64,000 nt of DNA from Bacteroidales bacterium (GTDB taxonomy: Bacteria; Bacteroidota; Bacteroidia; Bacteroidales; UBA3824). Shown one piece after another: positions 38,136 through 55,780 of this stretch. Location: contig JAFXUC010000080.1 in assembly GCA_017535325.1 (NCBI GenBank), forward strand, positions 1,213 through 65,212. Direction: 5' to 3'. The position numbers were made by a program, and so were the translations under genes. A model generated the notes under the pieces. It did not search any database, was not told the origin of the DNA, and saw only the letters and a list, made by a program, of their open reading frames with translations. The stretch's first letter is position 1. Each line of letters opens with the position of its first letter.

Positions 38136-38735
38136 ATGAAAAAAGCATTATCTTTTTGGATTTTTGCGGTTTTAGCGGTTTCGCTTTTGGCAGGCTGTTC
38201 CGTTTTGCAGAGCGCAAACTCGCTTAAAAGTTGCAAATTTGCGATGAAAAACGTTACCGACGTTTCCGTTGCGGGAATTAACCTTTCTAACAAGGCAAGT
38301 TTTAAGGACGTTTCCGCTGCTGACGTTATAAAACTCGGTGCGGCGTATCTTACAAAAAGTTTTCCTTTGACGATGAATGTCAACGTCAACGTTACTAATC
38401 CTAATCCTACGACTGCAAGGCTTGCGGGTTTGGAGTATATTCTTTGGATTGACGACGTAAAAATGACCGCAGGAAGCATGACACAAAGCCTTACGGTGGC
38501 TCAAAACGAAACCGCCGTTATGCCGCTGAGTTTTTCGCTTGACCTTTTGGAAATTCTTAAAGGCGAAAGTAAGGATAAGATTTTGAGTTTCGGCTGCGGT
38601 TTGGCGACAGGAAATCCCGATGTCAGCCGTGTAAAAGTATCTTTTAAACCGTCTTTCAACGTCGGCGGCTCAATAGTGAAATGGCCGACTTACATAACAA
38701 TCGGCGGCAACAAACTGATGCCTTCAACCAATTAA
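38136..38735 (+). CDS. LEA-2/WHy-like lipoprotein
   Basis: Lipobox LLAGC. MNVNVNVTNPNP...LEYILWIDDVKM pattern of LEA14-like domains. Bidirectional terminator CGGTGTA/TACACCG at 38751..38769. Confidence 0.55.
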   Translation: MKKALSFWIFAVLAVSLLAGCSVLQSANSLKSCKFAMKNVTDVSVAGINLSNKASFKDVSAADVIKLGAAYLTKSFPLTMNVNVNVTNPNPTTARLAGLEYILWIDDVKMTAGSMTQSLTVAQNETAVMPLSFSLDLLEILKGESKDKILSFGCGLATGNPDVSRVKVSFKPSFNVGGSIVKWPTYITIGGNKLMPSTN

Positions 38736-38773
38736 AAAAGAAATAAAAAACGGTGTATTTTTTACACCGTTTT

Positions 38774-39031
38774 TTATTTTTTCTTATCCCAATATCCTTC
38801 GTTTACGCGCTTTATGATTTCCTCAACAGAGAGAAATGAGTTCGGCAAAACGTTAACTGGTATCGGTTTTTTACATTCTTTGCTGGCGATAAAGCGTTTA
38901 CATTCTGTGTGTCTTTCGCGTGTACAGTAAAGGTTTTTGTACGAATCGCCTGTGAGTTTGTTAATCAAAATGCCTTCCTGAAAGATGGGACATTTTGCGA
39001 CCTTCGGACATATATTTGTATTTTCTTCCAT
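38774..39031 (-). CDS. small Cys-rich hypothetical protein
   Basis: 85 aa. Cysteines in ICPKVAKCPIF...LYCTRERHTECKRF...KECKK. No family recognised. Confidence 0.45.
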   Translation of the reverse strand: MEENTNICPKVAKCPIFQEGILINKLTGDSYKNLYCTRERHTECKRFIASKECKKPIPVNVLPNSFLSVEEIIKRVNEGYWDKKK

Positions 39032-39108
39032 CGTATTTTAATTTTATATTAACGGTGCTAATATAAAACAAAATATTTTCTTAACAAAAGAAAATTCCTA
39101 AAAAAACA

Positions 39109-39768
39109 TTAATTTGTTTCGTTTTTGTCTTTTGCCAACTCTTTTATTTCAAATCTTTTTTGGAAAATCAGCATAAGAGCCACGCCGACGGTTACGGCAG
39201 AGTCTGCAATGTTGAAAACAGGGGAGAAGAAGACGAAGTTTTTTCCGCCCCAAAACGGTACCCAGTCAGGCAAAACGGTGTCAATCATCGGAAAATACAG
39301 CATGTCAACTACTTTTCCCTGTAAAAAGGGAGCATAACCGCCGCCTGCGGGCATAAATTCAGCCACGGTGTTAGCGGCGTAACCTGTGGAAGAGAAAATC
39401 ACGCCGTAAAACATACAGTCAATCATGTTTCCGATTGCGCCCGCCAAAATCAGTGAGCCGCAGACTATTAATCCCGTTTTCGGCTGTTTGTATTTTATTA
39501 GCCAGCGGATTAGATAAATCATGCCGCCGATAGCGAGGATTCTGAAAACCGAAAGGAAAATTTTTCCCCATGCGCCGGGCAGTCCCCAACCGAAAGCCAT
39601 TCCGGGATTTTCCGTAAACGCCAACTGAAACCACTGCATCGGCCAGCCCCAGTGTTGATAACTGCTTTCGCCTATAAACATGTGGGTTTTTACCCAGATT
39701 TTTACGATTTGGTCAACAATGACAACCGCAAGTATGATAAAAACAGATTTTTTTGCTAATGAATTCAT
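39109..39768 (-). CDS. lspA: lipoprotein signal peptidase II
   Basis: VIVDQIVK, ENPGMAFGW, VFNIADSAVTVG. Start moved to MNSLAKK (39768), so it does not overlap the phosphatase gene. Confidence 0.85.
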   Translation of the reverse strand: MNSLAKKSVFIILAVVIVDQIVKIWVKTHMFIGESSYQHWGWPMQWFQLAFTENPGMAFGWGLPGAWGKIFLSVFRILAIGGMIYLIRWLIKYKQPKTGLIVCGSLILAGAIGNMIDCMFYGVIFSSTGYAANTVAEFMPAGGGYAPFLQGKVVDMLYFPMIDTVLPDWVPFWGGKNFVFFSPVFNIADSAVTVGVALMLIFQKRFEIKELAKDKNETN

Positions 39769-39803
39769 TTTTTCTAAATTTTGGGCAAAGTTAAAAAAAA
39801 ATT

Positions 39804-40946
39804 CTAAATTCTGTACCCTCCGATTAAAATATCGTCCATTTGCGCAAAACTTCCGCGCCACGAGGTTATAAATTCAAGCAGTTTTTCCTGTTGTTTTTCT
39901 GGCTCCTGCGTTTCGTTGTTGATTTCTATTAAAAGGTTTTTGAAACGGCCGTAACTTACTTTTTTGCCCGTCTCGCCGTTAAACTGGTCGGCAAAACCGT
40001 CAGAAAACATATAAATAAAGTCCCCGTCTTCCGCTTGAAATTCCTGAGTTTCAAACGGTTTCATTCTCGGATACAGTCCTATCGGATTTTTTACCGCCTT
40101 GTATTCCGTAAGTTCGCCTTTTCTGACAAGGTACATGGGATTGTTTGCGCCTGAAAATTTCAAGTGCTTGGTTTTTAAGTTCAAAATGCAAAACGACATA
40201 TCCATTCCGTCTTTGGGTTCAAGAGGGGAGGAGTTGTCCTGTTTTAGGGTCGTGATGATAAGTTCGCGCATGGTTTCGAGAATTTCCGACGGCATGGTCT
40301 CTTCGTTCAAATCCGTGCAGACCTCGTTTAAGAAAGTTACGCCGAGCATGCTCATAAACGCGCCCGGAACGCCGTGTCCCGTGCAGTCGGCAACCGTAAA
40401 GGCAAGCAGGTCGCCTTGACGCTTCATCCAGTAAAAGTCGCCCGAAACCGTCTCTTTCGGCAGCCAGAACAGAAAATAACCGCTCAGACCTTTTAAAACG
40501 TCTGTCTGAGGCAAAACAGCGTCCTGAATCCTTTTGGCATACGTTATTGAGTCGGTGATGTTGCGGTGCTTGTTTTCGATGTCGTTTTTTAGAAGTTGAA
40601 TGTGGTTTTTCTCCTTCTGAATCAAAAGCGACATTTCCCACAACTTTTTGTTTTTCAAGACGATTTCTTCTTTGTCCTGTTCAAGTTTTTTTTGCTCCAA
40701 AATAAAATTATCGGGCAATTTTTTTATGTCTCTCTGACTTTGTGCTGTCGGAGTTTGCGTTTCTTTTTTTTCTTGTAAAAGATAATTCAAACGGTCTATA
40801 TCTGATTCAAAATTTTTTATCTCGCTTTTGTATCTGTCTTTTATTTTTTCACTTGCGCGCGCAATTCTGCGGCTCATGGTAACTTGCATAATTACAACGA
40901 GTATGGCTAAAACTGCTGTCAAACATATAAATACAATTGTTAACAT
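39804..40946 (-). CDS. membrane-anchored coiled-coil SpoIIE/PP2C phosphatase
   Basis: N-terminal TM LTIVFICLTAVLAILVVIMQV, a coiled coil, then SGDFYWM...VADCTGHGVPGAFMSMLG...DGMDMSF...FSDGF...DDILIGG. Paralogous to the C-terminal half of 21990..23984. Start is ATG 40946 or TTG 40967. Confidence 0.85.
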   Translation of the reverse strand: MLTIVFICLTAVLAILVVIMQVTMSRRIARASEKIKDRYKSEIKNFESDIDRLNYLLQEKKETQTPTAQSQRDIKKLPDNFILEQKKLEQDKEEIVLKNKKLWEMSLLIQKEKNHIQLLKNDIENKHRNITDSITYAKRIQDAVLPQTDVLKGLSGYFLFWLPKETVSGDFYWMKRQGDLLAFTVADCTGHGVPGAFMSMLGVTFLNEVCTDLNEETMPSEILETMRELIITTLKQDNSSPLEPKDGMDMSFCILNLKTKHLKFSGANNPMYLVRKGELTEYKAVKNPIGLYPRMKPFETQEFQAEDGDFIYMFSDGFADQFNGETGKKVSYGRFKNLLIEINNETQEPEKQQEKLLEFITSWRGSFAQMDDILIGGYRI

Positions 40947-40979
40947 AATGATTATTTTTGTAAACAATAATTTTCTTCG

Positions 40980-43900
40980 TTAAAACTCCTCTCCTAAGAA
41001 TACTTTTAGTTTTTGATCGTTCAAAAACATGATACCGTCAGCACTTTTTACTTTCTGCATATATTTTTGAATGTCCATATAAAAATATCTCAGGGCATTG
41101 TCTGCGGTCAAAACATACAGAATATCATCTGAGGCATATCCCATGCAAACTACCGGTTGACGGTTCAATGAATGTTGCTCTATTACAAGACGTTTTGCGG
41201 CATCGTCTCTGGTGTTGATGATTGTTATACGGTTGTCAACTCCCGAAACTGCTAACAATCCGGAATGTATATTATAAACAACATTTTGTAAACCTGAATA
41301 ACTGCCTGCTATTTTTTCTGCTTGTGTATCGCTCTTAGTATCAACTACTTGGATTTCTCCGTTATCAAAACATATCGCAAGTTGACGTTTGTTCGGAATT
41401 GTAACCATATTGGTAGCCTTACTGCCTGATTGTGAGAACACTGTCTTCTGTGTGCCGTTTTTGATATTCCATTTTATTAAAGAACCTTTGTCAGTAAGTA
41501 TATACACTTCGGAATTATTCAATGCACAATTTACATCTGACAACTTTGTCTTTAAATTTATGCTCTTAATTACGTGAGAATCAGGGTCAGTATAGTTTAA
41601 GACTACAACTTTTCCCATTTCGTAGGCCAACACCAAAAGTTTTTTATCAGTTGAAACTGATGCTGCTTTTATGTAGTCGCCTTGTGAAGCCAACTTTACT
41701 TTTTCGCCGGTTTTGGTGTTAACGTAATACGTGTTTTTGTCGGAAGTGGAATAGACGAGATTTTCCGCGTCTGCAAAGCAAGCCTTTCTGACAGAAAATC
41801 TGCTGTCTTCGCCTTTGCTGATTTTTGTTTCTTTTGTTTTTTCTTTATCTAATTTGTAACCAATGATTTGTCCCTTCTCAGTTAAACAAATGATTTGATT
41901 GTCTTCATCGATGGCAAAACCCATTATTTTCTGAGAAGTGGTTTTCATTGGTTGCAAGAGATTGTTCTCTTCGAGGGCAAAAAGCACCGCATCGTAAAAT
42001 TCCGGCGTGTTTTCTGACTGATCGTTGAGGTTGTAGTAACTGTCAGCGGTCAAAATCAGGTTAAGGTTCATTTTTTTGTCCTTGTACTGGTTTTTGGCTT
42101 TCATGGCGAGCATGTTTGCCTTAGCCAAATTGTTGATTTCGTCCTTTTCGCGCTGAACTCGGTCGTTTTCTTCGATTTTGCCTTTCAACGAATCGCCCAA
42201 AGCATCGGAAATAAGTTTTTGTTCCAGCATTTTTTGATAGTTGGAATCCGCCCTGAGACGCTCCTCAACGGCAGTGCGGCGGTTTTTTTCTGCGATATAA
42301 CTTGCGTATTCGGCTTTTTTCTGCGCTTCAAGTGCTTGTAATGCCCTTAATTCAGCCGTGTCGCGTTGTTGAGAGGCAATTTCGTTGGCTCTTTCGGCGG
42401 CTTTTTGCTGTTCAACGGCGATTGCTTGCTGGTCTTGTGCGTATTTCTTTTGCTTTTCGGCTTCTACTTTTTGCTCCTCGGCGTTGTTTTTTTCCTGCAA
42501 CGCCCAATACGTAAAGCCTGACAAACTTGCGATAAAAATCAGCAAACCGTAAATTAGAAAATGTATTCTGCGTTTTGTTGCCTTTGCCTTTGTCTGAATA
42601 GCCACAAACGAGGATTCAAGAAAGTCAACGTAGTTTTCATAACGGAACTGCGCATTTTTTAACTTTTGTCTTGCAGGCAGTTTTGAACTGTCGTATTTAA
42701 CAAACAGATAAGGGTTTGGGTTACTTCTATTAAACCATTGGTTGAAGTAAGTGTAGTTTCCCGTATTTAACAGATACGACGGATTTTTCTCGCTTTTTAT
42801 CCAGAGTTGCATTTGAGAATTAAAGTCTTGATAATCCTTCATGTCTGCTGCTTCTTGTGTGTCCCATTCCGAAAGCATTTTCCAGTTTCTTATTAACGCT
42901 TCGTGCGTAACGTCCAAAACTGTATCGCCCGAAAGATATTGAGTTTCGGTTTTTTCGGGGTCAAGAAACGGCTTTATAAGCGAGTTGTCCGGAGTACGGA
43001 AAATGTTGATTACACCGCATACAGTGGCGTTTGTAACGTTTTCACGGTTGATAATTCCAGTGATTTCGCTCAACGTGCAACGGTTTCTTACCGGGCGGTT
43101 GTTGTCAACTTTTGTCAAAGATTTAAAAACGATTTCGATAATTTCTTTTGACTCGCCAACCGAAATGTTTTTTTCTGCCCAATCAGAATTTTCGATGAAA
43201 TAATCGTAAGCCGATTCGTACAAAATGCCCGCGTGAGCGTTCAAAACGTTGTTCAAATCGGTTTTTTCGTAGTATTTTTTCTGATATTCGGGCAGATTGT
43301 TGAACCAACGGTCAAATTCGCCTTTGTCGTCAGGACTTAAAACTTCACTTGAAATACCCGCTATTTTTGCTAAGTGAATCAAGTCCATAACATCTTCACC
43401 ATTGTTGGCAATCCTCCACAAAAGATTGAGTGCGTGCTGCAAAACAGGCAACTGGTCAAAACCCGAATTAAGGTTGTTGATGATAACCTCTGTTAAGCGT
43501 GAAGACACTTTTCCGCCCGCTAAAATAGCCGGCTCTTCTATAACTTGACGAATTTCGGTGCGTTTTAACTGCGGGACAAAAAACTGCGAATAAGCGATAT
43601 ATTCGGGCAGGTTTTTAAAGACTGTGCATTGCGAGATAAAGTCGCTTCGCATCGTAAAAATCACGTAAACAGGCAGTTTCTCCGTTATGGAAATTCTAAT
43701 TGTTTCCAAAAGTAAATTTATTGCTGTATACGATTCGTCAGAGGGACGGCCCTGATTGAAGTTTTCGATGTTTGTGAAAACTTCCTCAAATTGGTCAGCA
43801 ATGATTAAAAGGTTTTTGCCTGAATTAGAATCTTTTGTGTAGCATTTTGATGATTTATAGAGGTCTGTCAGTGCTGAAAAACCTTCTTTCAGTTGGTTCA

Positions 43901-44219
43901 TGCAGACGCTTTCATCGCAGTCTATTTGTTCAGCGAAAGCATTGGAAAGGCTTTCTAACGGATTTTTTTGCGGTTTGAAATCAGCGATTATCCAATTGTT
44001 GAATTGCGCTTTGAAAAAACCCACACGGATATAAGGAACGACACCGGCGTAAACCATACTTGATTTGCCGTCGCCGGAAGCACCGGTGATAAACGCCATT
44101 TTGTTTTCTTCTAACAGTTTGACGATTTGCCGTATGTGCAAATCTCGCCCTTTGAAGAAAATACTTTCCTCTTCTGTAAACGGTCTTAACCCCGGATATG
44201 GACAAACCCGCGCTGTCAT
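40980..44219 (-). CDS. STAND-type P-loop NTPase - TM helix - coiled coil - beta-propeller-like repeat protein
   Basis: CPYPGLRPFTEEESIFFKGRD, Walker A GASGDGKSS, Walker B LLIIADQFEEVF. Single TM FLIYGLLIFIASLSGFTYWAL (encoded around 42500..42565). Q/A/E/K-rich coiled coil. C-terminal ~350 aa made of ~40-aa beta-strand repeats. Confidence 0.8.
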   Translation of the reverse strand: MTARVCPYPGLRPFTEEESIFFKGRDLHIRQIVKLLEENKMAFITGASGDGKSSMVYAGVVPYIRVGFFKAQFNNWIIADFKPQKNPLESLSNAFAEQIDCDESVCMNQLKEGFSALTDLYKSSKCYTKDSNSGKNLLIIADQFEEVFTNIENFNQGRPSDESYTAINLLLETIRISITEKLPVYVIFTMRSDFISQCTVFKNLPEYIAYSQFFVPQLKRTEIRQVIEEPAILAGGKVSSRLTEVIINNLNSGFDQLPVLQHALNLLWRIANNGEDVMDLIHLAKIAGISSEVLSPDDKGEFDRWFNNLPEYQKKYYEKTDLNNVLNAHAGILYESAYDYFIENSDWAEKNISVGESKEIIEIVFKSLTKVDNNRPVRNRCTLSEITGIINRENVTNATVCGVINIFRTPDNSLIKPFLDPEKTETQYLSGDTVLDVTHEALIRNWKMLSEWDTQEAADMKDYQDFNSQMQLWIKSEKNPSYLLNTGNYTYFNQWFNRSNPNPYLFVKYDSSKLPARQKLKNAQFRYENYVDFLESSFVAIQTKAKATKRRIHFLIYGLLIFIASLSGFTYWALQEKNNAEEQKVEAEKQKKYAQDQQAIAVEQQKAAERANEIASQQRDTAELRALQALEAQKKAEYASYIAEKNRRTAVEERLRADSNYQKMLEQKLISDALGDSLKGKIEENDRVQREKDEINNLAKANMLAMKAKNQYKDKKMNLNLILTADSYYNLNDQSENTPEFYDAVLFALEENNLLQPMKTTSQKIMGFAIDEDNQIICLTEKGQIIGYKLDKEKTKETKISKGEDSRFSVRKACFADAENLVYSTSDKNTYYVNTKTGEKVKLASQGDYIKAASVSTDKKLLVLAYEMGKVVVLNYTDPDSHVIKSINLKTKLSDVNCALNNSEVYILTDKGSLIKWNIKNGTQKTVFSQSGSKATNMVTIPNKRQLAICFDNGEIQVVDTKSDTQAEKIAGSYSGLQNVVYNIHSGLLAVSGVDNRITIINTRDDAAKRLVIEQHSLNRQPVVCMGYASDDILYVLTADNALRYFYMDIQKYMQKVKSADGIMFLNDQKLKVFLGEEF

Positions 44220-44367
44220 AATTTAATTTTTTTTGATTTTCCTTTGAATTTTGTAGTTTTAAGTTGACATTATCAAAAAAAATGCCAAAAAATTTCCGAT
44301 TAATATAATCCCCGTTTGCAAACACGATGTAAAATTTGTAAATTTGCGACAGAAAATAATAAAAATT

Positions 44368-45039
44368 ATGCAAAACAAGATAATAAAAACCGCCGTATTG
44401 CTTCTTGTTGCAATAGCGTGCATTGCGGGCTGCCGGAAATGCTCCGAAATAGAAGACCGTCCGCTGACATATTTGGACTCTCTGCCCGTCTTGACAGAAA
44501 CGGCGCAGATTTTGGACGCGGTAAGCAGCCGTCATGAAAAAATCTATCTTATTGAAAACTACCGTTTTGAAAAGGCGAAAACTTTCAAAAACCCGTCAAC
44601 GCTCAGTCTTGTGGAAGGCGAGTTTGTCTATTACGGCATCACTGAGCAAATCAACGACGATATGCACCATACTTTCACAAAGTACGGTCGGCTGTTTTTT
44701 AGCGAAAATATTGAACTTCTCGGCTTTTACAACTCCCGCGTGCGGGGCTGTCCGAGCAAAAAAGACATGCGCGCTGTTTCTACCCGTACTCACAAAAAAG
44801 ATGAGGTAGACTGGTTTGTAAGTCCGGACGCCAAATTTACTTTTGTGGCAAAACTCGGCGCAAACAAAGCCGAACTCACCGGTTATGACGGCGAAAGGGT
44901 GATTGTTTCAGGCGGCGACAGAGAAACTCTTGCCGAGGCCTCGATGGCTCATCTCTGGTGGTTTAATATGAAGTACGTCCTCATATTAATAGTCGTTGTG
45001 ATTGTTTGCATAATCGGAGTTATCTGGACAAGCGATTAA
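44368..45039 (+). CDS. hypothetical lipoprotein with a C-terminal TM helix
   Basis: ATG 44368 is preceded by a TAaaTTTG box (44339..44346). Lipobox IAGC. C-terminal YVLILIVVVIVCIIGVIW. Confidence 0.55.
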   Translation: MQNKIIKTAVLLLVAIACIAGCRKCSEIEDRPLTYLDSLPVLTETAQILDAVSSRHEKIYLIENYRFEKAKTFKNPSTLSLVEGEFVYYGITEQINDDMHHTFTKYGRLFFSENIELLGFYNSRVRGCPSKKDMRAVSTRTHKKDEVDWFVSPDAKFTFVAKLGANKAELTGYDGERVIVSGGDRETLAEASMAHLWWFNMKYVLILIVVVIVCIIGVIWTSD

Positions 45040-45064
45040 TAATCTTAAAAAAACTATAAGAACC

Positions 45065-45910
45065 ATGAAAAAACTGTTATTGATTTCAGCGTTTTCGGCG
45101 GCGGTTTTCAGCGGCGTTGACGCGCAGACTCTCGACGGACAATGGACTGACGGTATCGTTACTTATTACGCCAAAAAAACCGGCAGCGATTATCTTTTTG
45201 ACGGCTTTTTGGGTGAAGACCGCAGTTTTACAATTTCAAAAACCGCTCAAAACAAGTTCGTCATAAAAAAAGAAAGCGAAGAGGAATACTATTCTCTCGG
45301 CAAAAACGGCAGCACAGTCAAGTACCTGACTATTACCGAAAGTTCTGGCAGAAAAGCCGAAATTTTGGCAAGTTACGGCACCGGCAACCAACTTTTTTAT
45401 GCGATTGAGAAGGATTTGACACAGAATGACAATTTTTACGAGTCGGGCATTGAGTATATGTTTGAAAACGTAATCGGCGGCGGTTTTGAAGTCCTTTATG
45501 ACGAGTACGGCTCAAATCATCACGCAGTGTTGAGAATTTCTGACAAAATTTACATCTTGAAGACAACTTCCGACGGCGTAACACTTTACAACACCAAAAA
45601 AGAAAACATTATGTACGAGCCGACCACTGTTTTCAAAACTATAAAATATACCGATTCAGGACAGGGCTGGTGGCCTAAGACCTCGAAAATTGTTCTCTCT
45701 GTCAGCATTTTGAGCCTTTTTGACAAGTCTCAGTTGCGGCTTATGCGCAATGAGATTTATGCGCGGCACGGCTGGCAGTTTTCGTCAGAAGACTTGAAAA
45801 GCCATTTTTCCAAGTTTTCGTGGTACAAACCTTCGGGAAACAATTCAACAATAAAACTTTCTGATTTGGAACAGTTTAACGTCGATTTGATTAAAGCAAT
45901 GGAAAAATAA
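45065..45910 (+). CDS. secreted YARHG-domain protein
   Basis: C-terminal LRLMRNEIYARHGWQF. Signal peptide. Terminator ACGCTCCG/CGGGGCGT plus T-run at 45935..45966. Confidence 0.75.
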   Translation: MKKLLLISAFSAAVFSGVDAQTLDGQWTDGIVTYYAKKTGSDYLFDGFLGEDRSFTISKTAQNKFVIKKESEEEYYSLGKNGSTVKYLTITESSGRKAEILASYGTGNQLFYAIEKDLTQNDNFYESGIEYMFENVIGGGFEVLYDEYGSNHHAVLRISDKIYILKTTSDGVTLYNTKKENIMYEPTTVFKTIKYTDSGQGWWPKTSKIVLSVSILSLFDKSQLRLMRNEIYARHGWQFSSEDLKSHFSKFSWYKPSGNNSTIKLSDLEQFNVDLIKAMEK

Positions 45911-46049
45911 TCCAGTCAAAATTAAAATCTAAAAACGCTCCGATTTGTTTCGGGGCGTTTTTTTTATGCAATAGTGCAATTTTTTACCTGCTGATTATGT
46001 CAAATATATGTATTATTTTTGCGCTGCAAAACAAGACTGACAATAAAAA

Positions 46050-47393
46050 ATGAGAACACTGATTATCACATCGTTAATAATTTTTTCAGCATTTTCGGTT
46101 AAGGCGCAGAGCCATGTAAAAACCGGTTGGACGTTTGGCGTATTGCCGTCGGTGGCATACGATGCCGATTTGGGTTTTCAATACGGCGCACTCACCAACA
46201 TTTACTATCACGGCGACGGCTCGCATTATCCTGAATATCTTCATTCTATCTATACCGAAGCCTCTTACACCACAAAACACAACGGGTTAATCAGACTGAA
46301 TTTTGACAGCCGTGCCGTTTTGCCTGGTTATCGTCTCAGCCTTGATATATCGTATATTCCCGACGAAATGAGCGATTTTGCAGGTTTTAACGGTTATCAG
46401 GCGGTATACAACGACGATTGGCGCAACGACGAATCCTCTGATTATCTGTCCCGCGCATTTTACAAATACCGCCGAAATATGTTTCGCGCCGCTGCTGACA
46501 TTCAAGGCTCTGTAACAGAGAAACTTAAATGGAACGCAGGGTTAGGCGTTCTAAGTTTTAATGTCGGCAGCGTTGACATCAACAAACTTAATAGGGGAGA
46601 GGACGAGAACAACAAACTGCCTGATATTGAATGTCTTTACGACAAATACTTTAAATGGGGATTAATTTCTGACAAGGAAATTAGCGGCGGAAGTTTTCCT
46701 TTTATCCACGCCGGAGCAACATTTGACACGCGCAATATGTCGGCAGCACCGTCAAAAGGCATTTGGGCAGACGCATTTTTAACTTATTCAGCGGCATTTG
46801 GCGACAAATCGGAGTTCAACAGTTTGAAATTAAACGCTAATTTCCGTCAGTACATTTCGCTCGGTACACCAAAAGCCGTTTTAGCCTATCGCATTGGAAC
46901 ACAGTTGACTTTGGCAGGTTCAACGCCGTTTTATATGCTCTGTTACCACAACAATTTGGTTTTGAAACGCGCAGTGTACGAAAGTTTGGGCGGGTCAAGT
47001 TCTTTGCGCGGCATAATGCGCAGCAGGATTTTGTCAAACGGTTTTTTGCTTGCAAATGTTGAAATGCGCCTTCGCATTGTTAGTTTTGACATCGGAACGC
47101 AGCATTTTTACATAGCGTCCAATCCGTTTGTAGATGCCGGAATAGTGGTTCAACCCGCTGACATAGACGAAGATAATTTAGCACTTGCGACTGTCCTCAC
47201 CGGCGACAATGCTGCCAATTATTTCGACTTTGGCAAATCAAACATTTACCGTCCGCATGTTTCAGGCGGCGTGGGATTAAAAATTGCCATGAACGAAAAC
47301 TTTATTTTGTCAATCGACTGGGCAACCCCGTTCAACACTCAGGATTCAGGCAAAAAGTCAAATCTTTATATCAAAATGGGGTATTTGTTTTGA
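46050..47393 (+). CDS. Omp85/surface-antigen-family outer-membrane beta-barrel
   Basis: Signal peptide, alternating beta-strand pattern, GGSSSLRG motif, terminal aromatic ...MGYLF. TAttTTTG box at 46014..46021. Confidence 0.65.
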   Translation: MRTLIITSLIIFSAFSVKAQSHVKTGWTFGVLPSVAYDADLGFQYGALTNIYYHGDGSHYPEYLHSIYTEASYTTKHNGLIRLNFDSRAVLPGYRLSLDISYIPDEMSDFAGFNGYQAVYNDDWRNDESSDYLSRAFYKYRRNMFRAAADIQGSVTEKLKWNAGLGVLSFNVGSVDINKLNRGEDENNKLPDIECLYDKYFKWGLISDKEISGGSFPFIHAGATFDTRNMSAAPSKGIWADAFLTYSAAFGDKSEFNSLKLNANFRQYISLGTPKAVLAYRIGTQLTLAGSTPFYMLCYHNNLVLKRAVYESLGGSSSLRGIMRSRILSNGFLLANVEMRLRIVSFDIGTQHFYIASNPFVDAGIVVQPADIDEDNLALATVLTGDNAANYFDFGKSNIYRPHVSGGVGLKIAMNENFILSIDWATPFNTQDSGKKSNLYIKMGYLF

Positions 47394-47428
47394 AAATTTT
47401 TACATACAGAACAATGGAATAAAGAAAA

Positions 47429-47719
47429 TTATAAAATTTCATAAATTTTAAATATTTTCTCCTTTAATTCATTGTCGTTGATTTTAGTAAAATAGTATTT
47501 TATTGTTTCTCTAAAACCGTACGGATCCCACTTGCCTATATAGGCTGCTATATAAGATGCTATATCAAACGCCGCATTGTTTTTTATAACATTTGGTTCT
47601 TTTTCGCAGATCCATTGTTCTGCATACCATAACTGACATTCTAAATCGTTAAATTTTTTCGGGCATTCTTTTTCTCCGTGATAGAATTTGCAGTACTTTA
47701 ATATATCTGTCTTTTCCAT
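47429..47719 (-). CDS. hypothetical protein
   Basis: 96-aa ORF. No motif recognised. Confidence 0.4.
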   Translation of the reverse strand: MEKTDILKYCKFYHGEKECPKKFNDLECQLWYAEQWICEKEPNVIKNNAAFDIASYIAAYIGKWDPYGFRETIKYYFTKINDNELKEKIFKIYEIL

Positions 47720-47822
47720 AGTCTATTTTTCCTAAACGGTAAAATTTTATTTCACTCTTTGTTGTAAATTTTTAGGACTTTGACGTAAATTCCAAAAATC
47801 AATTACCGTAACATTGTTATTG

Positions 47823-48095
47823 TCAATACGATATATGATTTTGTTCAATCTCTTTGTCAAACTCCAATTCTTCCGCTATCTGTCTGAATGTCTCTTCTGA
47901 CGTAGTATATTCTCCGTTTGCGATTTCTTTTTCGATTTCGTCAAATCTTTTGTCAAGTTCCTCTTTGGTGTACGGACACTCTGAAACTTCCTCTTTTTCA
48001 GATGTTTCCAGTTCACTGACAAGCCACATTCTGTCCTCGAAAGAAAGAGTTTCCAAAAGATATTCGCGTAAGTTTATCAATGCTTCTCTGCTCAT
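47823..48095 (-). CDS. hypothetical acidic protein
   Basis: 90-aa, E-rich ORF. No motif recognised. Confidence 0.4.
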   Translation of the reverse strand: MSREALINLREYLLETLSFEDRMWLVSELETSEKEEVSECPYTKEELDKRFDEIEKEIANGEYTTSEETFRQIAEELEFDKEIEQNHISY

Positions 48096-48203
48096 AATCT
48101 TATTAGTTTTTAATTCGTTGTAAAAATACTGTTTTTTTTAGAAAACGGCAAATAAATCCAAAATTTTTTCCTATCTTTCGCCCGAAATTTAACACAAAAA
48201 AAT

Positions 48204-49109
48204 ATGAAAAAACAATTAACAATTCTTTCCCTTTCAGCATTGACATTGTTTTCGTGCGGGGGAAACCAAACTCAAAATCAGAGCGGTGCACAGAGTGCAG
48301 ACACCACTTCAAAAAATGTTGAGACGGCTCAGAAAACCGAACAGCAGGAAACTCCCAAACCGGAAGAAAAGCCCGAAATTCCGCCTTACGAGGTTGATAA
48401 TTTCAGCGGCAAAAATGTTGATTTTTCAAAGCCGGTTTTGATAACTACAAATACGCTTTGGAAAGATGAGGACGGCAGTTTAAAAGAAGACGGCACACCT
48501 TCCGTTGCGGAATATTGCCGTTATGATTCCAAAGGCAGAATCCTTGAATACGGCTGTTTTACGGGTCAGTTTGACTACGAAGGCTATATCAGAATGTTCA
48601 AAATCTGTTACAGCGGCGAAAAAATAGACTCTGTTCAGTGGAAAGAGGTTTACAGCGGAAAACTCGAAGAAAAGAAAGGCGAAATTTTCAAAAAAGATGT
48701 CAGCATTTTTGACATCGTAACCGGCGAAAACATAGGTTTTATTCATGAGGCAGACAAGGAAGTCAAAGACCTTGACCCGTATTCAATAGCCTCAATGCGG
48801 CATTACGCCGACACCAAGACCGATATTTTGGAGCGTCAGTTCGGAATTATGTACGATTTCAGCGTCGTTGAAAAATGGAACAAGCAGGAGCGCGACAACA
48901 GCGGAAGGGTTACTTATGCCGAATATAAAAACGCGTTCGGCGAAGGCGAGTACGAACTTTATAAGATAAAATACACTTACGGCGAAGATTTCGTCAAGAG
49001 AACTTTCAACAAAAAACAGCGCGTGGAGTTTGAAGGCGATTTTGACGAGAATGAATATGATTATGTTCAGGTAGAAAAATATCTTCATACGGACAGTGAA
49101 GTAAAATAA
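48204..49109 (+). CDS. lipoprotein, family member 1 (conserved signal peptide)
   Basis: MKKQLTILSLSALTLFSCGGNQ. Shared upstream TATCTTTCGCC at 48172..48182. Confidence 0.75.
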   Translation: MKKQLTILSLSALTLFSCGGNQTQNQSGAQSADTTSKNVETAQKTEQQETPKPEEKPEIPPYEVDNFSGKNVDFSKPVLITTNTLWKDEDGSLKEDGTPSVAEYCRYDSKGRILEYGCFTGQFDYEGYIRMFKICYSGEKIDSVQWKEVYSGKLEEKKGEIFKKDVSIFDIVTGENIGFIHEADKEVKDLDPYSIASMRHYADTKTDILERQFGIMYDFSVVEKWNKQERDNSGRVTYAEYKNAFGEGEYELYKIKYTYGEDFVKRTFNKKQRVEFEGDFDENEYDYVQVEKYLHTDSEVK

Positions 49110-49116
49110 TTGAATT

Positions 49117-50319
49117 ATGAAAAAACAATTAACCATTCTTTCCCTTTCCGCACTGACGTTGTTTTCGTGCGGGGGAAACAAGTCGCAAAATCAGAGTGTT
49201 GCAGAAAAAACCGATTCTGCTAAAACCGTAATGACAGAGCCGTCAAATAATACAGTGGAGGCTGCGGAAAAAACAGCGGAAGTCAGCGAAAACTTGGATT
49301 CTGTTCTTCAAAAAATTAATCCTTGGCTGAAAAAACTTCCTGAAAATCCCGACAGACAGTTCTATTTCTTTGAACATGAAGTCGATACCATTAAAGGACT
49401 TGCTTATTTCAAAGACTTTTTGTACGCCTACCCGTTTAAAACCGGCGGTTATCTGACTGTATCAGAACACAGCGAAATGTCAGAGGAAAATTATATTCCG
49501 ATGACACAGCGCGAAACTTATATTTACAAAGACGGAAAACTATCTTCTGCAAAAAACGTTTTGCCCGTACCTGACCCCGTCATGTTTACCAACGCAGAAA
49601 AAAGAACGGCACATAAAGCCGATTTCGATGCTATGTCCGCGCTTTACAAAAGACGTTCCAGCGATTATGTAAATTATATATTTTACAACGACAAACCTGA
49701 AATCCGTACTGTTCTCCGTCTTATCAACTACGATGATTCCGACTGGAAAAAAGAATATTCTGACCTGCTTGAAGGTAATGACAAGCCAAGTTACAGATGG
49801 GACGGCGAAAAGTTCGTGTTTTTTGACCCCTTTGAGGAATTTATGAAAAGCCTGCCTGAATCACCCGACAAAGCCGTTTATCAAAACAACAAAGTCGAAT
49901 ATATTATGGACGAGTTTTGCTCTGTCAGTGAGGACTGTTATGCCTTTCCGATAACCGGCGGCGGATACCTTGGCGTATTTAGTTACAACTGTCAGTGCGA
50001 GGCTTCAATGTCTTGGTATGACAGCACTTACGTTTACAAAGACGGTAAAATAAAGAGTGTTTCAAACGTTTTGCCCGTCCCTGAAATCTCAGCGTTGCTT
50101 GATGAAGAAAAGTGCAAGGGCAACGACGGTTTGGTCAGGGAAATTGTTGAACAATACAACAAATACCCGAAGGATTATCTTCTTTACTACATTTCTGACG
50201 ACGGCACACTGAGCGTCAGCGCGGAAGGCAACGGCTGCGAGCAGTGGGGCGAAAACCAGTTGGAATTAATGAAAAATGCCGTTTACAAATGGGACGGCGA
50301 AAAATTTATAAAACAATAA
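49117..50319 (+). CDS. lipoprotein, family member 2
   Basis: MKKQLTILSLSALTLFSCGGNK. Two internal domain copies, each with ...GGYL...Y(I/V)YKDGK(L/I)...NVLPVP... and ending in (Y/K)WDGEKF. Confidence 0.75.
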   Translation: MKKQLTILSLSALTLFSCGGNKSQNQSVAEKTDSAKTVMTEPSNNTVEAAEKTAEVSENLDSVLQKINPWLKKLPENPDRQFYFFEHEVDTIKGLAYFKDFLYAYPFKTGGYLTVSEHSEMSEENYIPMTQRETYIYKDGKLSSAKNVLPVPDPVMFTNAEKRTAHKADFDAMSALYKRRSSDYVNYIFYNDKPEIRTVLRLINYDDSDWKKEYSDLLEGNDKPSYRWDGEKFVFFDPFEEFMKSLPESPDKAVYQNNKVEYIMDEFCSVSEDCYAFPITGGGYLGVFSYNCQCEASMSWYDSTYVYKDGKIKSVSNVLPVPEISALLDEEKCKGNDGLVREIVEQYNKYPKDYLLYYISDDGTLSVSAEGNGCEQWGENQLELMKNAVYKWDGEKFIKQ

Positions 50320-50329
50320 CAATCACAAT

Positions 50330-51904
50330 ATGAAAAGAACAATTATACTTTCCCTTTCTGCATTGACGTTGTTTTCGTGCGGGGGAAATCAGCCGCAGCA
50401 AACGCAGTCTCAGCCGCAAAACACTGCTGAAACTGCCGCAGAAACTACCGGCGAAAAAACTTTCAAATACGTTGAGCCTCAGGATTCTGTTGTAAAAACA
50501 ATCTGGGAAAAACTCAAAAAAGAGGACAAACATATTTCAAACGTCATAACAGACGCTGTGAATTTTGACTATATTCCTCAGAGCGAGGCGGAAATTTTCA
50601 AGTCGAAAACCGCCATGGAATACGATTACCTTGTTCCGATGGGCAGCGAAGAGCCGGATAATTGCATTGCGGCAAACTACCGTATACAATGTTACCAAAC
50701 GCTTGACAATGCGTGGATTGCAATTATTGACGCTGTGGTTCACGGTTACGATTTGGATTCCGTCGACCATGCAGATAAGGTTTTTACGGTCAAGTTTAAG
50801 GACGGCAAAATTTCTTATCCCGACAACAAAGATTTTTTTCCCGAAAATTTTAAAACAGTAGAGGCTCATCACCGTGGCTTTTACAATCCGAGCATTATTT
50901 TCAGCAATACCGGTTTGAATTTCGTTCATTCGGAATACTGGCCGCTGAAATATCACTGGAACGGCAACAAGTTTGAGTCAGACTCAAAATTTATATGCAG
51001 TTCTGTTGACATGTACCGTGGAAATTTCTGCATGGAAGGCAAATGTGCAAACATAGGCGCTGAATGGACGGGAAGTCCTGACGGCGTTTTCAAGTCCGAT
51101 GACGGAAAACCTCTTGCAAAACTTGAATTAAAAGACGGAATCATAGAAGGTTATACGATTTTGGATTCGTCATGCGGTGTGGTTCAGGCTACCAATACCG
51201 ACAGTATTACTCACAATCCTGTTGCGCTTGGTTATCCTATAAAAAACGTTCTTGACTTTAAACGTGCTACTGCGTGGATGAAGGATACTGTCATAACCAA
51301 AGGTATGAAAGACGGCAAATACGTTATTACACAGCAACTTTGCCATGACACTCAGGACAAACGCCGCGATGTTTTTATAGAATTTGCCGCAAAGGACGAA
51401 AATTCCGAAATCGAAAGCATCAGGGTTTATTCAACGCCTTTGACGGTAACTCTTATGAGCGAGTTTGAGGCTGCAAAGTCTCTGTCAGATGAGGCGAGAA
51501 TGATTTTCAAAGCCTTGAATTTCAATGAGAAAGAATACGGAGTGTTTAAGCGTGCCAGTATTTATAACAAAAACGGTTTTAATATTGAGTTTGACAACGA
51601 TTTAGAAGTCCGTTTTCAGATTTATAAGGCTGACGGCGGCAGATTTTTGGTTGTTCTTTCAAAGAAAGAGGGGTATTTTAAAAGTCTTGGCGAAAAGTTC
51701 TGGTATTACGAGAACGGACAGTTTACTCCGGCAAAGATTGACATTCCCGCGCCGCATTATTACAAATCGGAAGACGAGTGTATGTATTATTTCACAGACG
51801 AGGGGCTTGAATGGGACAACGACGATGCCGACATGGAAAACCATTTTCATGAGGATTTTCCTTGGAACGGAAAAGAGTTTGAGTCTCAGGTAGGAGAAGG
51901 ATAA
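50330..51904 (+). CDS. lipoprotein, family member 3
   Basis: MKRTIILSLSALTLFSCGGNQ. HWNGNKFESD mid-protein and PWNGKEFESQ at the C-terminus. Confidence 0.75.
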   Translation: MKRTIILSLSALTLFSCGGNQPQQTQSQPQNTAETAAETTGEKTFKYVEPQDSVVKTIWEKLKKEDKHISNVITDAVNFDYIPQSEAEIFKSKTAMEYDYLVPMGSEEPDNCIAANYRIQCYQTLDNAWIAIIDAVVHGYDLDSVDHADKVFTVKFKDGKISYPDNKDFFPENFKTVEAHHRGFYNPSIIFSNTGLNFVHSEYWPLKYHWNGNKFESDSKFICSSVDMYRGNFCMEGKCANIGAEWTGSPDGVFKSDDGKPLAKLELKDGIIEGYTILDSSCGVVQATNTDSITHNPVALGYPIKNVLDFKRATAWMKDTVITKGMKDGKYVITQQLCHDTQDKRRDVFIEFAAKDENSEIESIRVYSTPLTVTLMSEFEAAKSLSDEARMIFKALNFNEKEYGVFKRASIYNKNGFNIEFDNDLEVRFQIYKADGGRFLVVLSKKEGYFKSLGEKFWYYENGQFTPAKIDIPAPHYYKSEDECMYYFTDEGLEWDNDDADMENHFHEDFPWNGKEFESQVGEG

Positions 51905-51926
51905 GAAGAACTGAACTAATCGAAAT

Positions 51927-52415: not shown

Positions 52416-52418
52416 TGC

Positions 52419-53330: not shown

Positions 53331-53461
53331 GTCAGTGAAGTTTTTTTATTATATTTTTTGGTGCAAATATAGTTGTTTTTTTTCACTTTTCAGATGATTG
53401 TAAAATTTTGTTTTTTTGTAGGTTTTGTTTATTTTTGTGGCAAATCAAAATTTATGTGAGT

Positions 53462-53614: not shown

Positions 53615-53625
53615 TAGAAAAAAAC

Positions 53626-54318: not shown

Positions 54319-54345
54319 ATCTGTTCGTCCGCTTAATACGTTCAA

Positions 54346-55726: not shown

Positions 55727-55777
55727 GTTATAATCTGCGGAATCTTGTTTTTTTTTGCAGATTCCGCAGATTATAAC
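55727..55777. repeat. perfect 19-bp inverted repeat (stem-loop), function unknown
   Basis: GTTATAATCTGCGGAATCT - 13-nt T-rich loop - AGATTCCGCAGATTATAAC. Confidence 0.9.
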
Positions 55778-55780
55778 AAC

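Follow-up and report, generated by a model that had tools for sequence, protein, structure and literature searches.

The 64,000-nucleotide stretch of DNA analysed here (the window) encodes what we lean towards reading as an outside-in, trans-envelope receptor with a STAND (NLR-like) NTPase as its switch and a phosphatase as its output. The envelope-sensing system to which it would belong, combining a STAND NTPase with a periplasmic propeller, appears to be widespread and is so far uncharacterised. A putative functional link between the STAND gene, a PP2C phosphatase gene and a third gene, designated 'up', is supported by gene organization. The neighbourhood of STAND and PP2C proved to be conserved, the two genes being co-located on the same strand in 33 of the 36 complete Bacteroidales-type loci. 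Likewise, 35 of 46 loci have 'up' next to the STAND gene, and 42 protein clusters have it fused N-terminally to STAND. The two-gene pair proposed in the preliminary description of this DNA is thus not the whole system, which comprises three or more components, 'up' being the third.

Architecture and topology of the STAND protein

An open reading frame of 1079 aa, claimed previously to encode a STAND-type P-loop NTPase, was found exactly as given, with all the motifs that had been quoted from it (CPYPGLRPFTEEESIFFKGRD, GASGDGKSS, LLIIADQFEE and FLIYGLLIFIASLSGFTYWAL). Its features are as follows.

40980..44219, minus strand: STAND receptor gene, 1079 aa, with nSTAND1 NTPase, helical/winged-helix modules, TM helix, coiled-coil stalk and 7-bladed WD40 propeller (ORF, Pfam, AF2)
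43320..44219, minus strand: predicted cytoplasmic P-loop NTPase core, aa 1-300 (Pfam match at aa 7-291)
44058..44084, minus strand: Walker A, GASGDGKSS, aa 46-54 (sequence motif)
42675..43319, minus strand: helical and winged-helix modules, aa 301-515, with THEALIRNW (H439) (AF2 secondary structure, invariant columns)
42498..42560, minus strand: single TM helix, aa 554-574, predicted N-in/C-out, with KATKRR towards the cytoplasm and W572-A573 where the helix meets the periplasm (hydropathy, charge)
42075..42497, minus strand: predicted stalk in the periplasm, aa 575-715: a ~20-nm coiled coil forming a heptad-exact 'ruler' (AF2 helix, heptad analysis)
41079..42074, minus strand: predicted periplasmic head, with helical neck (aa 716-764) and 7-bladed WD40 beta-propeller (aa 765-1047) (profile, AF2, Foldseek)

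The N-terminal Pfam match was nSTAND1 (E=1e-65; score 223 bits, cut-off 27). The STAND assignment was further borne out by Walker B (LLIIADQFEE, with D142) and by the sensor T-x-R (T189-M-R191), as K52 of Walker A, D142, E145, E146, R191 and the winged-helix H439 were invariant across 48 homologs. The 1807 homologs of the protein could be aligned over their full length down to 40% identity, and the family mean identity to the window protein reached 74% in the NTPase core. Using Foldseek, full-length Apaf-1 was collinear with the STAND protein over about 1140 columns. Comparison with locus L007, whose DNA is 88% identical, gave dN/dS values of 0.02-0.19 across every STAND domain; purifying selection on this protein is strong throughout.

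The sole hydrophobic helix (aa 551-574, Kyte-Doolittle 1.88) is preceded over 15 residues by five K/R and no D/E, and is followed by a net charge of -2, in agreement with the single membrane-spanning helix proposed earlier. One TM helix with the same charge asymmetry was found in nearly all of about 85 relatives, including variants of 1350 and 1580 aa, and its Kyte-Doolittle values in relatives reached 2.1-3.2. The NTPase side is placed in the cytoplasm because the NTPase needs cytoplasmic ATP. Additionally, 38 of 42 'up'-STAND fused homologs carry a LysM peptidoglycan-binding domain at the C-terminus, beyond the TM helix and the propeller, which represents independent evidence for a periplasmic C-terminus. 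Both this domain and the conserved positive-inside pattern favour the previous suggestion that the repeats face the periplasm. The evidence is strong, at the level of sequence, for a protein anchored to the inner membrane through one helix, with the NTPase predicted inside and the propeller outside.

The Q/A/E/K segment, formerly described as a coiled coil, behaved as a true heptad coiled coil: Fourier peaks were observed at 3.5 and 7 residues, and alanine or a small residue occupied each 7th position over almost all of aa 573..678. In the AF2 model the stalk belongs to one continuous helix (516-708), the pLDDT of the stalk being low in the monomer model. In 76 of 87 homologs, 133 aa separate the TM helix from AMKAK; the distance is 140 aa in ten others and 126 in one. 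All deviations were exactly ±7 aa, indicating that indels correspond to whole heptads. With a predicted length of ~20 nm, the stalk brings the propeller near enough to approach peptidoglycan and the outer membrane. Concerning the repeats of ~40 aa, regarded initially as a degenerate WD40/propeller, the propeller assignment stood, and a 7-bladed WD40 propeller was supported by the family profile (PDB 2ymu, WD40, E=1.3e-35), by AF2 (27 strands, pLDDT ~90) and by Foldseek (TM-scores of 0.7-0.82, with 0.82 to PkwA and 0.78 to RACK1, G-beta being also matched). The dN/dS of the propeller was 0.07 versus L007; across the family, the ectodomain has a divergence rate roughly double that of the NTPase.

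The PP2C phosphatase and 'up'

The other features of the unit and its surroundings are listed below.

39804..40967, minus strand: membrane-anchored PP2C phosphatase, 387 aa (ORF, Pfam SpoIIE)
40878..40958, minus strand: PP2C TM helix, aa 4-30, predicted N-out/C-in, followed by SRRIAR
within 39804..40967, minus strand: predicted cytoplasmic coiled coil of PP2C, aa 33-150
39807..40517, minus strand: SpoIIE-type catalytic domain, aa 151-387 (Pfam SpoIIE, E=4.5e-22)
38741..38779, minus strand: terminator-like hairpin, 17-bp stem and T-run
58115..58972, plus strand: 'up', predicted cytoplasmic tandem TIR/DUF4062-like protein, 285 aa (identity to L004 gene, AF2, Foldseek)

The phosphatase gene, with its TM helix, coiled coil and SpoIIE/PP2C domain, lies downstream of the STAND gene as previously reported, either 12 nt past the STAND stop (TTG start) or 33 nt (internal ATG). 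The closest solved structure to its PP2C domain was PDB 6k4e (E=2.6e-29), presumably that of SiaA, and NCBIfam SiaA was matched with E=4.6e-47, at 161 bits, well short of the equivalog cut-off of 700. Residues D177, D194-xx-GHG, D253/D256, D323-G and D378-D379 were at least 95% conserved in 45 orthologs, and the protein is, judging from these residues, an active-type phosphatase with a catalytic domain predicted to be cytoplasmic. It shares with SiaA and the RsbU/SpoIIE PP2C proteins the conserved DxxGHG and Asp metal ligands, the membrane anchor and the coiled-coil linker, but lacks a HAMP domain and any periplasmic sensor domain. Since a PP2C paralog in the same window (21990..23984) has its own periplasmic TPR sensor, the STAND-linked PP2C looks like an output subunit without a sensor. 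Neither SiaB/SiaC nor STAS/RsbW genes were found beside it.

The hairpin was the sole strong terminator-like site on the minus strand of 38500..45200, none being detected in the minus-strand scan between the STAND, PP2C and lspA genes. A transcription unit composed of STAND, PP2C, lspA and an 85-aa ORF probably ends at this hairpin. The position of lspA next downstream was confirmed in the window but is not a conserved trait, as ~1 kb is inserted beside lspA in L007; lspA is an incidental neighbour of the STAND-PP2C unit.

The third core component alongside STAND and PP2C is 'up'. Its window copy is displaced by 14 kb from the STAND gene and inverted, and is 62% identical to the L004 gene, which abuts the STAND gene. 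The AF2 model (pLDDT 90) comprised two flavodoxin-like domains, Foldseek retrieved bacterial TIR domains at TMt 0.55-0.60, and DUF4062 was matched by 14 of 43 family members. In 148 of 164 sequences, Gln takes the place of the catalytic Glu of the DUF4062-like module; long-type relatives have an additional canonical TIR with the catalytic Glu intact. The earlier statement that no TIR effector is fused is thus true for the window STAND protein but not for relatives, in which a TIR-like module is fused.

Relatives and known systems

Most loci are found among housekeeping genes (ileS, lspA, efp, mraZ/fts, polA) and look vertically inherited within Bacteroidales. The window comes from a gut/rumen Bacteroidales bacterium, and its locus borders a variable island with Leo-like GTPases and a patatin phospholipase; HEPN/NTase pairs flank L006. 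Genomes contain 2-4 paralogs, and tandem cassette duplication was observed. Paralogous cassettes also encode an outer-membrane barrel, m1 (signal peptide), and lipoproteins m2/m3 (lipoboxes), the lipoproteins of many cassettes displaying acidic, surface-export-like signals. These genes are absent from the window version of the cassette, to which any role of m1/m2/m3 is consequently inapplicable. In L057, a TM-coiled-coil-Guanylate_cyc protein (E=3.5e-59) replaces PP2C, and in L082 a cyclase is fused to 'up'. The output module is apparently exchangeable between lineages, consisting of PP2C, a class III nucleotide cyclase or an intact TIR, and the swap of PP2C for cyclase is typical of signalling modules.

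The window protein shares with the nSTAND1 conflict STANDs (Kaur, Burroughs, Iyer and Aravind 2020/2021; PF20703) its NTPase family, C-terminal superstructure-forming repeats and an accessory module in N-terminal position. However, described members are soluble, with EADs, caspase, trypsin, TIR or FGS domains, whereas the window protein is PP2C-linked and its NTPase is separated from its predicted periplasmic repeats by a TM helix and a coiled coil of 20 nm. Such a layout was described in none of the papers searched. Apaf-1 and NWD1/NWD2/TEP1 display the same succession of a TIR-like/DUF4062 module or CARD, a STAND NTPase and a WD40 propeller, and in NWD1/TEP1 the DUF4062-like module is fused as in the 42 bacterial clusters. 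The window NTPase differs in belonging to the nSTAND1 clade rather than NB-ARC/NACHT, the unit is split in two genes, the propeller is predicted across the membrane and the catalytic Glu is Gln. Avs, bNACHT and PsAvs2 (DUF4062/NIR NADase effector) similarly associate a STAND having a repeat sensor with a TIR-like partner. These proteins, however, sense phage proteins in the cytosol and carry lethal effectors at the N-terminus, in contrast to the window system, with its degenerate NADase site, housekeeping-like context, and neither PADLOC match nor lethal effector.

Proposed mechanism and alternatives

As a receptor, the STAND protein would bind an envelope ligand or partner through its propeller, altering stalk packing. 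The partner in paralogous cassettes would probably be the co-encoded barrel m1 with lipoproteins m2/m3, and the ligand in LysM-bearing relatives may be peptidoglycan. The packing change would travel along the continuous helix 516-708 across the membrane and free the STAND module, which would then exchange nucleotide and oligomerise in the manner of Apaf-1 and MalT. The catalytically degenerate 'up' could be an adaptor or ligand-binding subunit of the assembled cytoplasmic platform. Platform and 'up' would engage the membrane-tethered phosphatase, perhaps through TM or coiled-coil regions, and dephosphorylation of a Ser/Thr phosphoprotein would change physiology, by analogy with the RsbU, SpoIIE and SiaA partner switches. 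Gene linkage and architecture are the sole basis for the proposed signalling direction and for a STAND-PP2C contact. Toll-like receptors offer an analogous layout (extracytoplasmic repeat sensor, one TM, cytoplasmic TIR-type module).

Low dN/dS in all STAND domains, housekeeping flanks and zero PADLOC matches for STAND, PP2C or 'up' denote a housekeeping-like behavior. Nevertheless, STAND and TIR-like modules are a hallmark of immune/conflict systems, which speaks against signalling, and an immune role is possible, although we hold it to be rather unlikely. An NLR-like sentinel would survey periplasm, peptidoglycan or outer membrane for signs of phage adsorption/injection, lytic enzymes or contact-dependent attack, and trigger a protective or abortive response via 'up' and PP2C (cyclase or TIR in other lineages). 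Class III cyclases are also used in Pycsar-type defence, which would suit such a role, as would the intact TIR of long-type 'up', the variable island and the HEPN/NTase pairs. The multiplicity of paralogs per genome and the faster divergence of the ectodomain would be compatible with a recognition arms race as well, and tandem cassette duplication would likewise suit an immune role. Furthermore, conflict systems are the setting in which nSTAND1 was defined (PMC8195603, PMC7159879), and DUF4062 is a TIR-like NADase effector in several new anti-phage systems and PsAvs2 (bioRxiv 2026.05.01.722283, 2026.09.04.749371, 2026.06.25.731849). This role is weakened by the absence of PADLOC matches, by the Glu-to-Gln change, which is used experimentally to kill NADase activity, by the lack of a lethal effector in the Bacteroidales type, by strong purifying selection even in the propeller and by the housekeeping surroundings and apparently vertical inheritance of most loci.

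An inside-out, TolA-like mechanical coupling, in which nucleotide-driven conformational changes of the NTPase move or hold the propeller against outer-membrane partners via the rigid stalk, appears improbable. It could serve e.g. outer-membrane tethering, lipoprotein/surface-protein handling or envelope spacing, PP2C regulating the machine instead of being its output. The stalk, which is A/K/E/Q-rich, length-quantised and ~20 nm long, is similar to domain II of TolA in both composition and role. By layout, an inner-membrane anchor, a long A/K/E-rich periplasm-spanning helix and an outer-membrane-proximal head are analogous to TolA, TolB being a periplasmic propeller. However, STAND NTPases are reportedly slow switches and not motors (Leipe 2004; Danot 2009), and the partner modules (PP2C, cyclase, TIR) are of a kind typical for signalling output. 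The barrel, the surface-export-like lipoproteins and the LysM of some relatives agree with a mechanical role, as do the periplasmic beta-propellers TolB and PorE, which act at the outer membrane (PorE: PMC12773672), but the outer-membrane partners are missing from the window copy. Profile searches detected no homology to TolA, TonB or their motor proteins; nor was sequence homology found to TolB or Toll-like receptors, from which the window protein differs by drawing energy and signal logic from its fused STAND NTPase. Finally, very little credence can be given to a soluble Apaf-1-like STAND, with the hydrophobic segment buried in a cytoplasmic coiled coil and a meaningless PP2C adjacency. The moderate hydrophobicity of the window helix would suit it, but the helix is more hydrophobic in relatives with the K/R cluster always kept on its N-side, LysM follows it in most fused homologs, partner proteins of STAND cassettes are envelope proteins, and the linked PP2C is itself membrane-anchored.

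Architecture and membrane topology of the STAND protein

The core of the locus consists of two tandem genes on the minus strand, and a third gene, encoding the partner 'up', lies at a distance:

40980..44219, minus strand, STAND protein (1079 aa)
39804..40967, minus strand, PP2C phosphatase (387 aa)
58115..58972, plus strand, 'up' (285 aa), putative TIR/DUF4062-like partner protein

The ORF listing agreed with the preliminary description as to the two tandem genes and as to the alternative gaps of 12 or 33 nt between them, which correspond to a TTG start 12 nt past the STAND stop codon and to an internal ATG at 33 nt. It also placed lspA on the 3' side of the PP2C gene, as claimed, and a small 85-aa ORF after lspA. 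Taken individually, the domains belong to known families and it is their undescribed arrangement that is new. This uncharacterised family of STAND receptors, spread across the phylum, is predicted to span the membrane and has a periplasmic stalk whose length is quantised. In bacteria, plants and animals alike, STAND/NLR-type switches are regarded as soluble sensors located in the cytoplasm. Here, a rigid stalk of constant length would carry the sensor repeats beyond the cytoplasmic membrane, the NTPase, the TIR-like module and the enzymatic output remaining inside. No such layout was described in the nSTAND1 and STAND papers searched, and literature searches for this architecture gave just passing mentions of TM-bearing bacterial NACHTs.

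Assignment of the N-terminal module to the STAND NTPases, previously proposed from its motifs, was borne out by Pfam: residues 7-291 scored 223.3 bits with nSTAND1 (PF20703; cut-off 27.1, E=1e-65), and the same model reached E=4e-70 in distant relatives of 1350 aa. Across 48 aligned full-length homologs, down to 40% identity, invariant residues included K52 of the Walker A motif GASGDGKSS, D142, E145 and E146 of the Walker B motif LLIIADQFEE, the T-x-R sensor motif T189-M-R191-S-D and the winged-helix histidine H439 in THEALIRNW; these motif assignments are putative and represent our own reading of the alignment. In the AF2 model (mean pLDDT 78.6), residues 300-510 formed helices and small sheets, and a Foldseek search with this model retrieved full-length Apaf-1, collinear over ~1140 columns (E=5.6e-15). 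When the NTPase module was compared with the PDB by sequence profile, no solved STAND protein was reached, but just the Walker-A (P-loop) region of UvrA and ABC ATPases. Membership of the ABC ATPases was rejected since this match covers residues 20-122 only and since Pfam, motifs and Foldseek all pointed to STAND. By analogy with the family, nucleotide-dependent switching and oligomerisation are predicted.

A single segment of the protein exceeds 1.6 on the Kyte-Doolittle scale. This hydrophobic helix (aa 551-574) is preceded by KATKRR and followed by an acidic stretch; five K/R residues lie before it, and the net charge after it is -2. The positive-inside pattern already pointed out for the window protein recurred in nearly all of ~85 relatives: a K/R cluster on the N-terminal side of a single TM, located at an equivalent position ~510 residues past the P-loop, was seen in nearly every relative inspected, including the 1350-aa forms of Cytophagales and Balneolales and fused forms of 1500-1620 aa. 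Because the NTPase requires cytoplasmic nucleotide, the C-terminal half should lie outside. Independent support for a periplasmic C-terminus came from homologs, LysM being absent from the window protein itself: in a fused homolog of 1580 aa (locus L065), the TM and seven canonical WD40 repeats are succeeded by a C-terminal, peptidoglycan-binding LysM domain (PF01476, E=6e-15), and 38 of the 42 fused homolog clusters have a C-terminus of LysM type, in agreement with their NCBI names. Further support was provided by the accessory genes m1, m2 and m3 co-encoded in paralogous cassettes, as their products are envelope proteins. The m1 protein combines a signal peptide, a TPR-like region and an outer-membrane beta-barrel (PF13568, E=1.8e-6); m2 and m3 carry lipoboxes, frequently followed in m3 by an acidic stretch after the Cys, which we take to be the Bacteroidota surface-export signal. 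The STAND protein is thus predicted to be bitopic in the inner membrane (N-in/C-out), its C-terminal domain being periplasmic, and it would be very surprising if it did not span the membrane at all.

The C-terminal repeats, for which a degenerate WD40 propeller had been suggested, form a seven-bladed WD40 propeller according to the structural models. AF2 yielded a helical neck and then 27 strands between residues 765 and 1047 (pLDDT ~90), and these strands, together with the Foldseek matches (TMt 0.82 with PkwA, 5yzv; 0.80 with 7bie, a designed seven-bladed propeller; 0.78 with RACK1), supported seven four-stranded blades closing as a ring. The family profile matched WD40 proteins of the PDB at E=1.3e-35. 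The word 'degenerate' was fair, since, taken by itself, the window protein stayed below the gathering scores of all propeller Pfam models (best 45.6 bits, E=7.8e-12); PF00400 gave no match to it in the Pfam scan.

Between TM and propeller, stalk length was measured in 87 full-length homologs as the distance separating the W-A that ends the TM from a conserved A-M-K-A-K motif. It amounted to 133 residues in 76 homologs, 140 in ten and 126 in one, every change thus being exactly one heptad. Likewise, a near-invariant Ala or small hydrophobic residue occupies each seventh position almost throughout 573 to 678, and Fourier power peaked at 3.5 and 7 residues. A single unbroken AF2 helix (516-708) spans the TM and the entire Q/A/E/K region, the stalk being poorly modelled as a monomer. 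At ~0.148 nm per residue its length is roughly 20 nm, and the width of the Gram-negative periplasm is of the order of ~20 nm. The heptad-quantised length and the heptad periodicity are strong evidence for a ruler, that is, a constrained coiled coil that sets a constant distance between propeller and inner membrane.

Partner proteins and gene neighbourhood

In the PP2C phosphatase, an N-terminal signal-anchor with SRRIAR behind it (N-out, C-in) precedes ~120 aa of coiled coil, and the catalytic part is a SpoIIE-type domain (PF07228; 79.4 bits against a cut-off of 25, E=4.5e-22). The metal-binding motifs D177, D194-xx-G197-H198-G199, D253/D256, D323 and D378-D379 were conserved at 95% or more among 45 STAND-linked orthologs. 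Its closest solved structure was 6k4e (2.6e-29), listed as 'Putative serine phosphatase', which we take to be the PP2C domain of SiaA, in agreement with an NCBIfam SiaA match. That match, to the equivalog NF038263, a full-length model comprising HAMP and sensor regions, scored 160.9 bits against a cut-off of 700 and was confined to the C-terminal PP2C part (profile 392-656), a score far too low for a SiaA ortholog, and this identity was ruled out. No STAS/RsbW- or SiaB/SiaC-like substrate genes were found beside the locus. The window also encodes a 664-aa paralog (21990..23984, plus strand) with signal peptide, TPR repeats, TM, coiled coil and SpoIIE domain, a self-contained periplasmic-sensor phosphatase whose catalytic part is 37-40% identical to the STAND-linked PP2C. 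As this paralog has a periplasmic TPR sensor of its own, the STAND-linked PP2C looks like a sensor-less output subunit.

The AF2 model of 'up' comprises two flavodoxin-like domains (pLDDT 90). Its best single-domain Foldseek matches were bacterial TIR domains (4c7m, 3h16 and 8g83; TMt 0.54-0.60, E 4.5e-4 to 1e-2), receiver and small-GTPase folds scoring as well. The window copy had no Pfam match at E<0.1 and a profile search with 'up' retrieved noise only from PDB sequences. However, DUF4062 (PF13271) was matched by 14 of 43 family members (best 6.3e-7), and long-type homologs exceeded the gathering scores of both DUF4062 (28.0 vs 24.7) and TIR_2 (28.5 vs 28). On the basis of fold, family-level Pfam matches and long-type homologs, 'up' is probably TIR/DUF4062-like. 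DUF4062 (NIR) has been described as a TIR-like NADase effector of anti-phage systems and of human TEP1, with a catalytic Glu in a 'SYT...E-Y' motif (E97 in KpSwz, E108 in PsAvs2, E87 in Eva01), and Glu-to-Gln is the change used experimentally to inactivate the enzyme (bioRxiv 2026.05.01.722283, 2026.09.04.749371, 2026.06.25.731849). In 'up', Gln occupies this position in 92 of the 105 short-type sequences, in all 17 long-type ones and in 39 of the 42 fused ones, and Glu in only two, the register being that of our motif alignment and not of a structural superposition. An active NADase label is therefore not warranted. Since the Gln is itself conserved, 'up' may have a non-hydrolytic role, e.g. 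as an adaptor or in ligand binding. The substitution also bears on the NIR/DUF4062 NADase family as a whole, as it suggests a putative non-catalytic DUF4062-like branch serving ligand binding or as a scaffold.

In 42 protein clusters, 'up' is fused N-terminally to STAND. This Rosetta-stone link puts it in the classical N-terminal 'effector/adaptor' position, and the fusions reproduce the DUF4062-NTPase-WD40 order of NWD1 and TEP1. The fused class (L065, 6978..11720, and clusters P0235-P0277; 42 clusters down to 40% identity) consists of single chains of 1450-1620 aa containing 'up', nSTAND1, TM, coiled coil, seven WD40 repeats and LysM, annotated at source merely as 'LysM peptidoglycan-binding domain-containing protein' or 'WD40 repeat protein'.

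Six-frame ORF calls and HMM matches were used to analyse the gene neighbourhoods of 82 related loci; all of these loci were from MAGs, so that some gene orders may reflect assembly. The pairing of STAND and PP2C genes was found well beyond the window: with an HMM built from the catalytic domain only, PP2C was detected on the same strand and at most 6 kb downstream in 33 of the 36 Bacteroidales-type loci with sufficient flank. Three gene orders were observed, namely up-STAND-PP2C (the window type), up-STAND-PP2C-m1-(m2)-m3 and up-STAND-m1-m2-PP2C, and in 35 of 46 loci an 'up'-type gene of ~285 aa abuts or overlaps the STAND start. The window 'up' is 62% identical to the copy of locus L004. Comparison with the closest relative, L007 (88% DNA identity across the STAND-PP2C pair), showed that, in the window lineage, 'up' together with its flank has undergone inversion with respect to the STAND gene. 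As tblastn found none of m1, m2 and m3 in the window, its system is a minimal three-gene form with the third gene displaced.

No terminator-like hairpin comparable to the only strong one on the minus strand (38741..38779, past the 85-aa ORF) separates the STAND, PP2C and lspA genes, so their co-transcription is plausible. As a functional partner, lspA was rejected: its adjacency is lost in L007, and in L004 and L005 the gene occupies the opposite side and strand.

Partners varied in other lineages. In Flavobacteriales loci (L057, 12945..13949), PP2C is replaced by a class III nucleotide cyclase (Guanylate_cyc, aa 144-327, E=3.5e-59) whose preceding ~140 residues matched the HMM of the PP2C TM/coiled-coil region. 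A PP2C identity of the partners in L057-L059 was rejected, Pfam giving TM-coiled-coil-Guanylate_cyc. In L082 (1643..3754), the 'up' module carries a fused cyclase domain. Cytophagales and Balneolales loci (e.g. L067, 2281..3876) have a canonical TIR fused N-terminally to 'up', with the Glu of 'SFAW..EF' intact, and two STAND paralogs in tandem; PP2C was not found nearby. These variations point to a constant core, made of the TIR-like module and of nSTAND1, TM, stalk and periplasmic repeats, and to an exchangeable enzymatic output.

Possible roles: envelope signalling or immunity

The family is not rare: a minimum of 528 loci were confirmed among species-representative genomes, and 1807 homologs were detectable. 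Many rumen and gut Bacteroidales have 2-4 paralogs per genome, and distinct forms occur in Cytophagales, Balneolales, Chitinophagales and Flavobacteriales. We lean, by a modest degree, towards outside-in envelope signalling. A dedicated immune role seems rather unlikely, and a TolA-like mechanical role, working inside-out, quite improbable. Identity with a known defence system was dropped, as PADLOC-DB v2.0.0 gave no match at E<0.1 for the STAND protein, PP2C, 'up', m1, m2 or m3 and noise-level matches only for the long variants; this result also speaks for signalling. So do the degenerate NADase site, PP2C and cyclase outputs typical of sensory pathways, and locus flanks that are usually housekeeping genes. 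Purifying selection was strong in every domain (dN/dS 0.02-0.19 at dS ~0.5), and diversifying selection, sought on the propeller, was not found (dN/dS 0.07 at dS ~0.5), more distant pairs being saturated in this comparison.

The case for immunity draws on the immune pedigree of the nSTAND1 and DUF4062 families, the intact TIR kept by distant relatives and the multiplicity of paralogs within genomes. Additionally, the ectodomain diverges faster than the NTPase (32-35% vs 74% mean identity), and the window locus adjoins a variable island with Leo-like GTPases and a patatin phospholipase. In the favoured reading, that of envelope signalling, a ligand and a PP2C substrate are inferred, as are the oligomeric state and the signalling direction.

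A more novel and tentative proposal we consider possible but doubtful. The family would be a receptor class joining the topology of Toll-like receptors (extracytoplasmic repeat sensor, one TM, cytoplasmic TIR-type module) to the STAND NTPase engine of NLRs. Positioned across the periplasm at a constant distance quantised in heptads, it would survey peptidoglycan or outer membrane. It would have originated as an immune sentinel, of which the TIR-bearing Cytophagales/Balneolales and LysM forms would be representatives, and would have been re-wired to a phosphatase in Bacteroidales. If true, the system would be the first of NLR-like type to cross a membrane, and would provide a direct example from bacteria of a STAND that senses danger signals of the envelope or of peptidoglycan. 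The family offers a tractable model for a conformational signal crossing a membrane into a STAND oligomerisation switch, and is a candidate pathway for envelope surveillance in a phylum about whose envelope signalling little is known. Its exchangeable PP2C, cyclase and TIR outputs represent a natural experiment on the signalling re-use of immune-type modules.

Variable segment and other observations

The STAND gene and 'up' are separated by a non-homologous segment, of 13.8 kb in the window (44295..58056, without counterpart in L007) vs ~4.9 kb in L007, which looks like a variable island. It contains the following features:

within 44295..58056, YARHG protein
46050..47393, Omp85-family barrel
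48204, 49117 and within 56101..57270, lipoprotein paralogs (at least three) whose signal peptides (MKKQLTILSLSALTLFSCGGN) are almost identical
52419..53330, minus strand, patatin-like phospholipase (Pfam 2.8e-37; PADLOC phospholipase effector models 1.6e-11)
53626..54345 and 54346..55338, minus strand, dynamin/IIGP-like GTPases (PADLOC LeoBC/LeoA models, E=2.7e-13)

The GTPase at 54346..55338 has a glycine-zipper at its C-terminus. Judged from these profile matches, the three-gene minus-strand cluster at 52419..55338 is a candidate Leo/dynamin-type defence module.

Directly after lspA, an 85-aa Cys-rich ORF (38774..39031, minus strand) gave no Pfam, NCBIfam or PADLOC match. Its stop codon is overlapped by the terminator-like hairpin, which has a 17-bp stem, and the STAND-PP2C-lspA transcription unit may end with this ORF.

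Two complete four-gene cassettes (STAND, m1 outer-membrane barrel, m2 lipoprotein, PP2C) stand in direct tandem in L001 (1020..14807; contig shared with L034, MAG RGIG1614). Their STAND paralogs are ~50% identical to the window protein and their m1/m2 pairs just 21-29% identical mutually; this tandem is an old duplication with strongly diverged envelope partners.

Elsewhere in the window, a 370-aa ORF (25583..26695, plus strand) resembles tyrosine recombinases/integrases by a C-terminal HxxRHTFA...LGH...Y pattern, as read from its sequence. The next ORF (26985..27482, plus strand; 165 aa) is extremely acidic, and the two may mark the edge of a mobile element.
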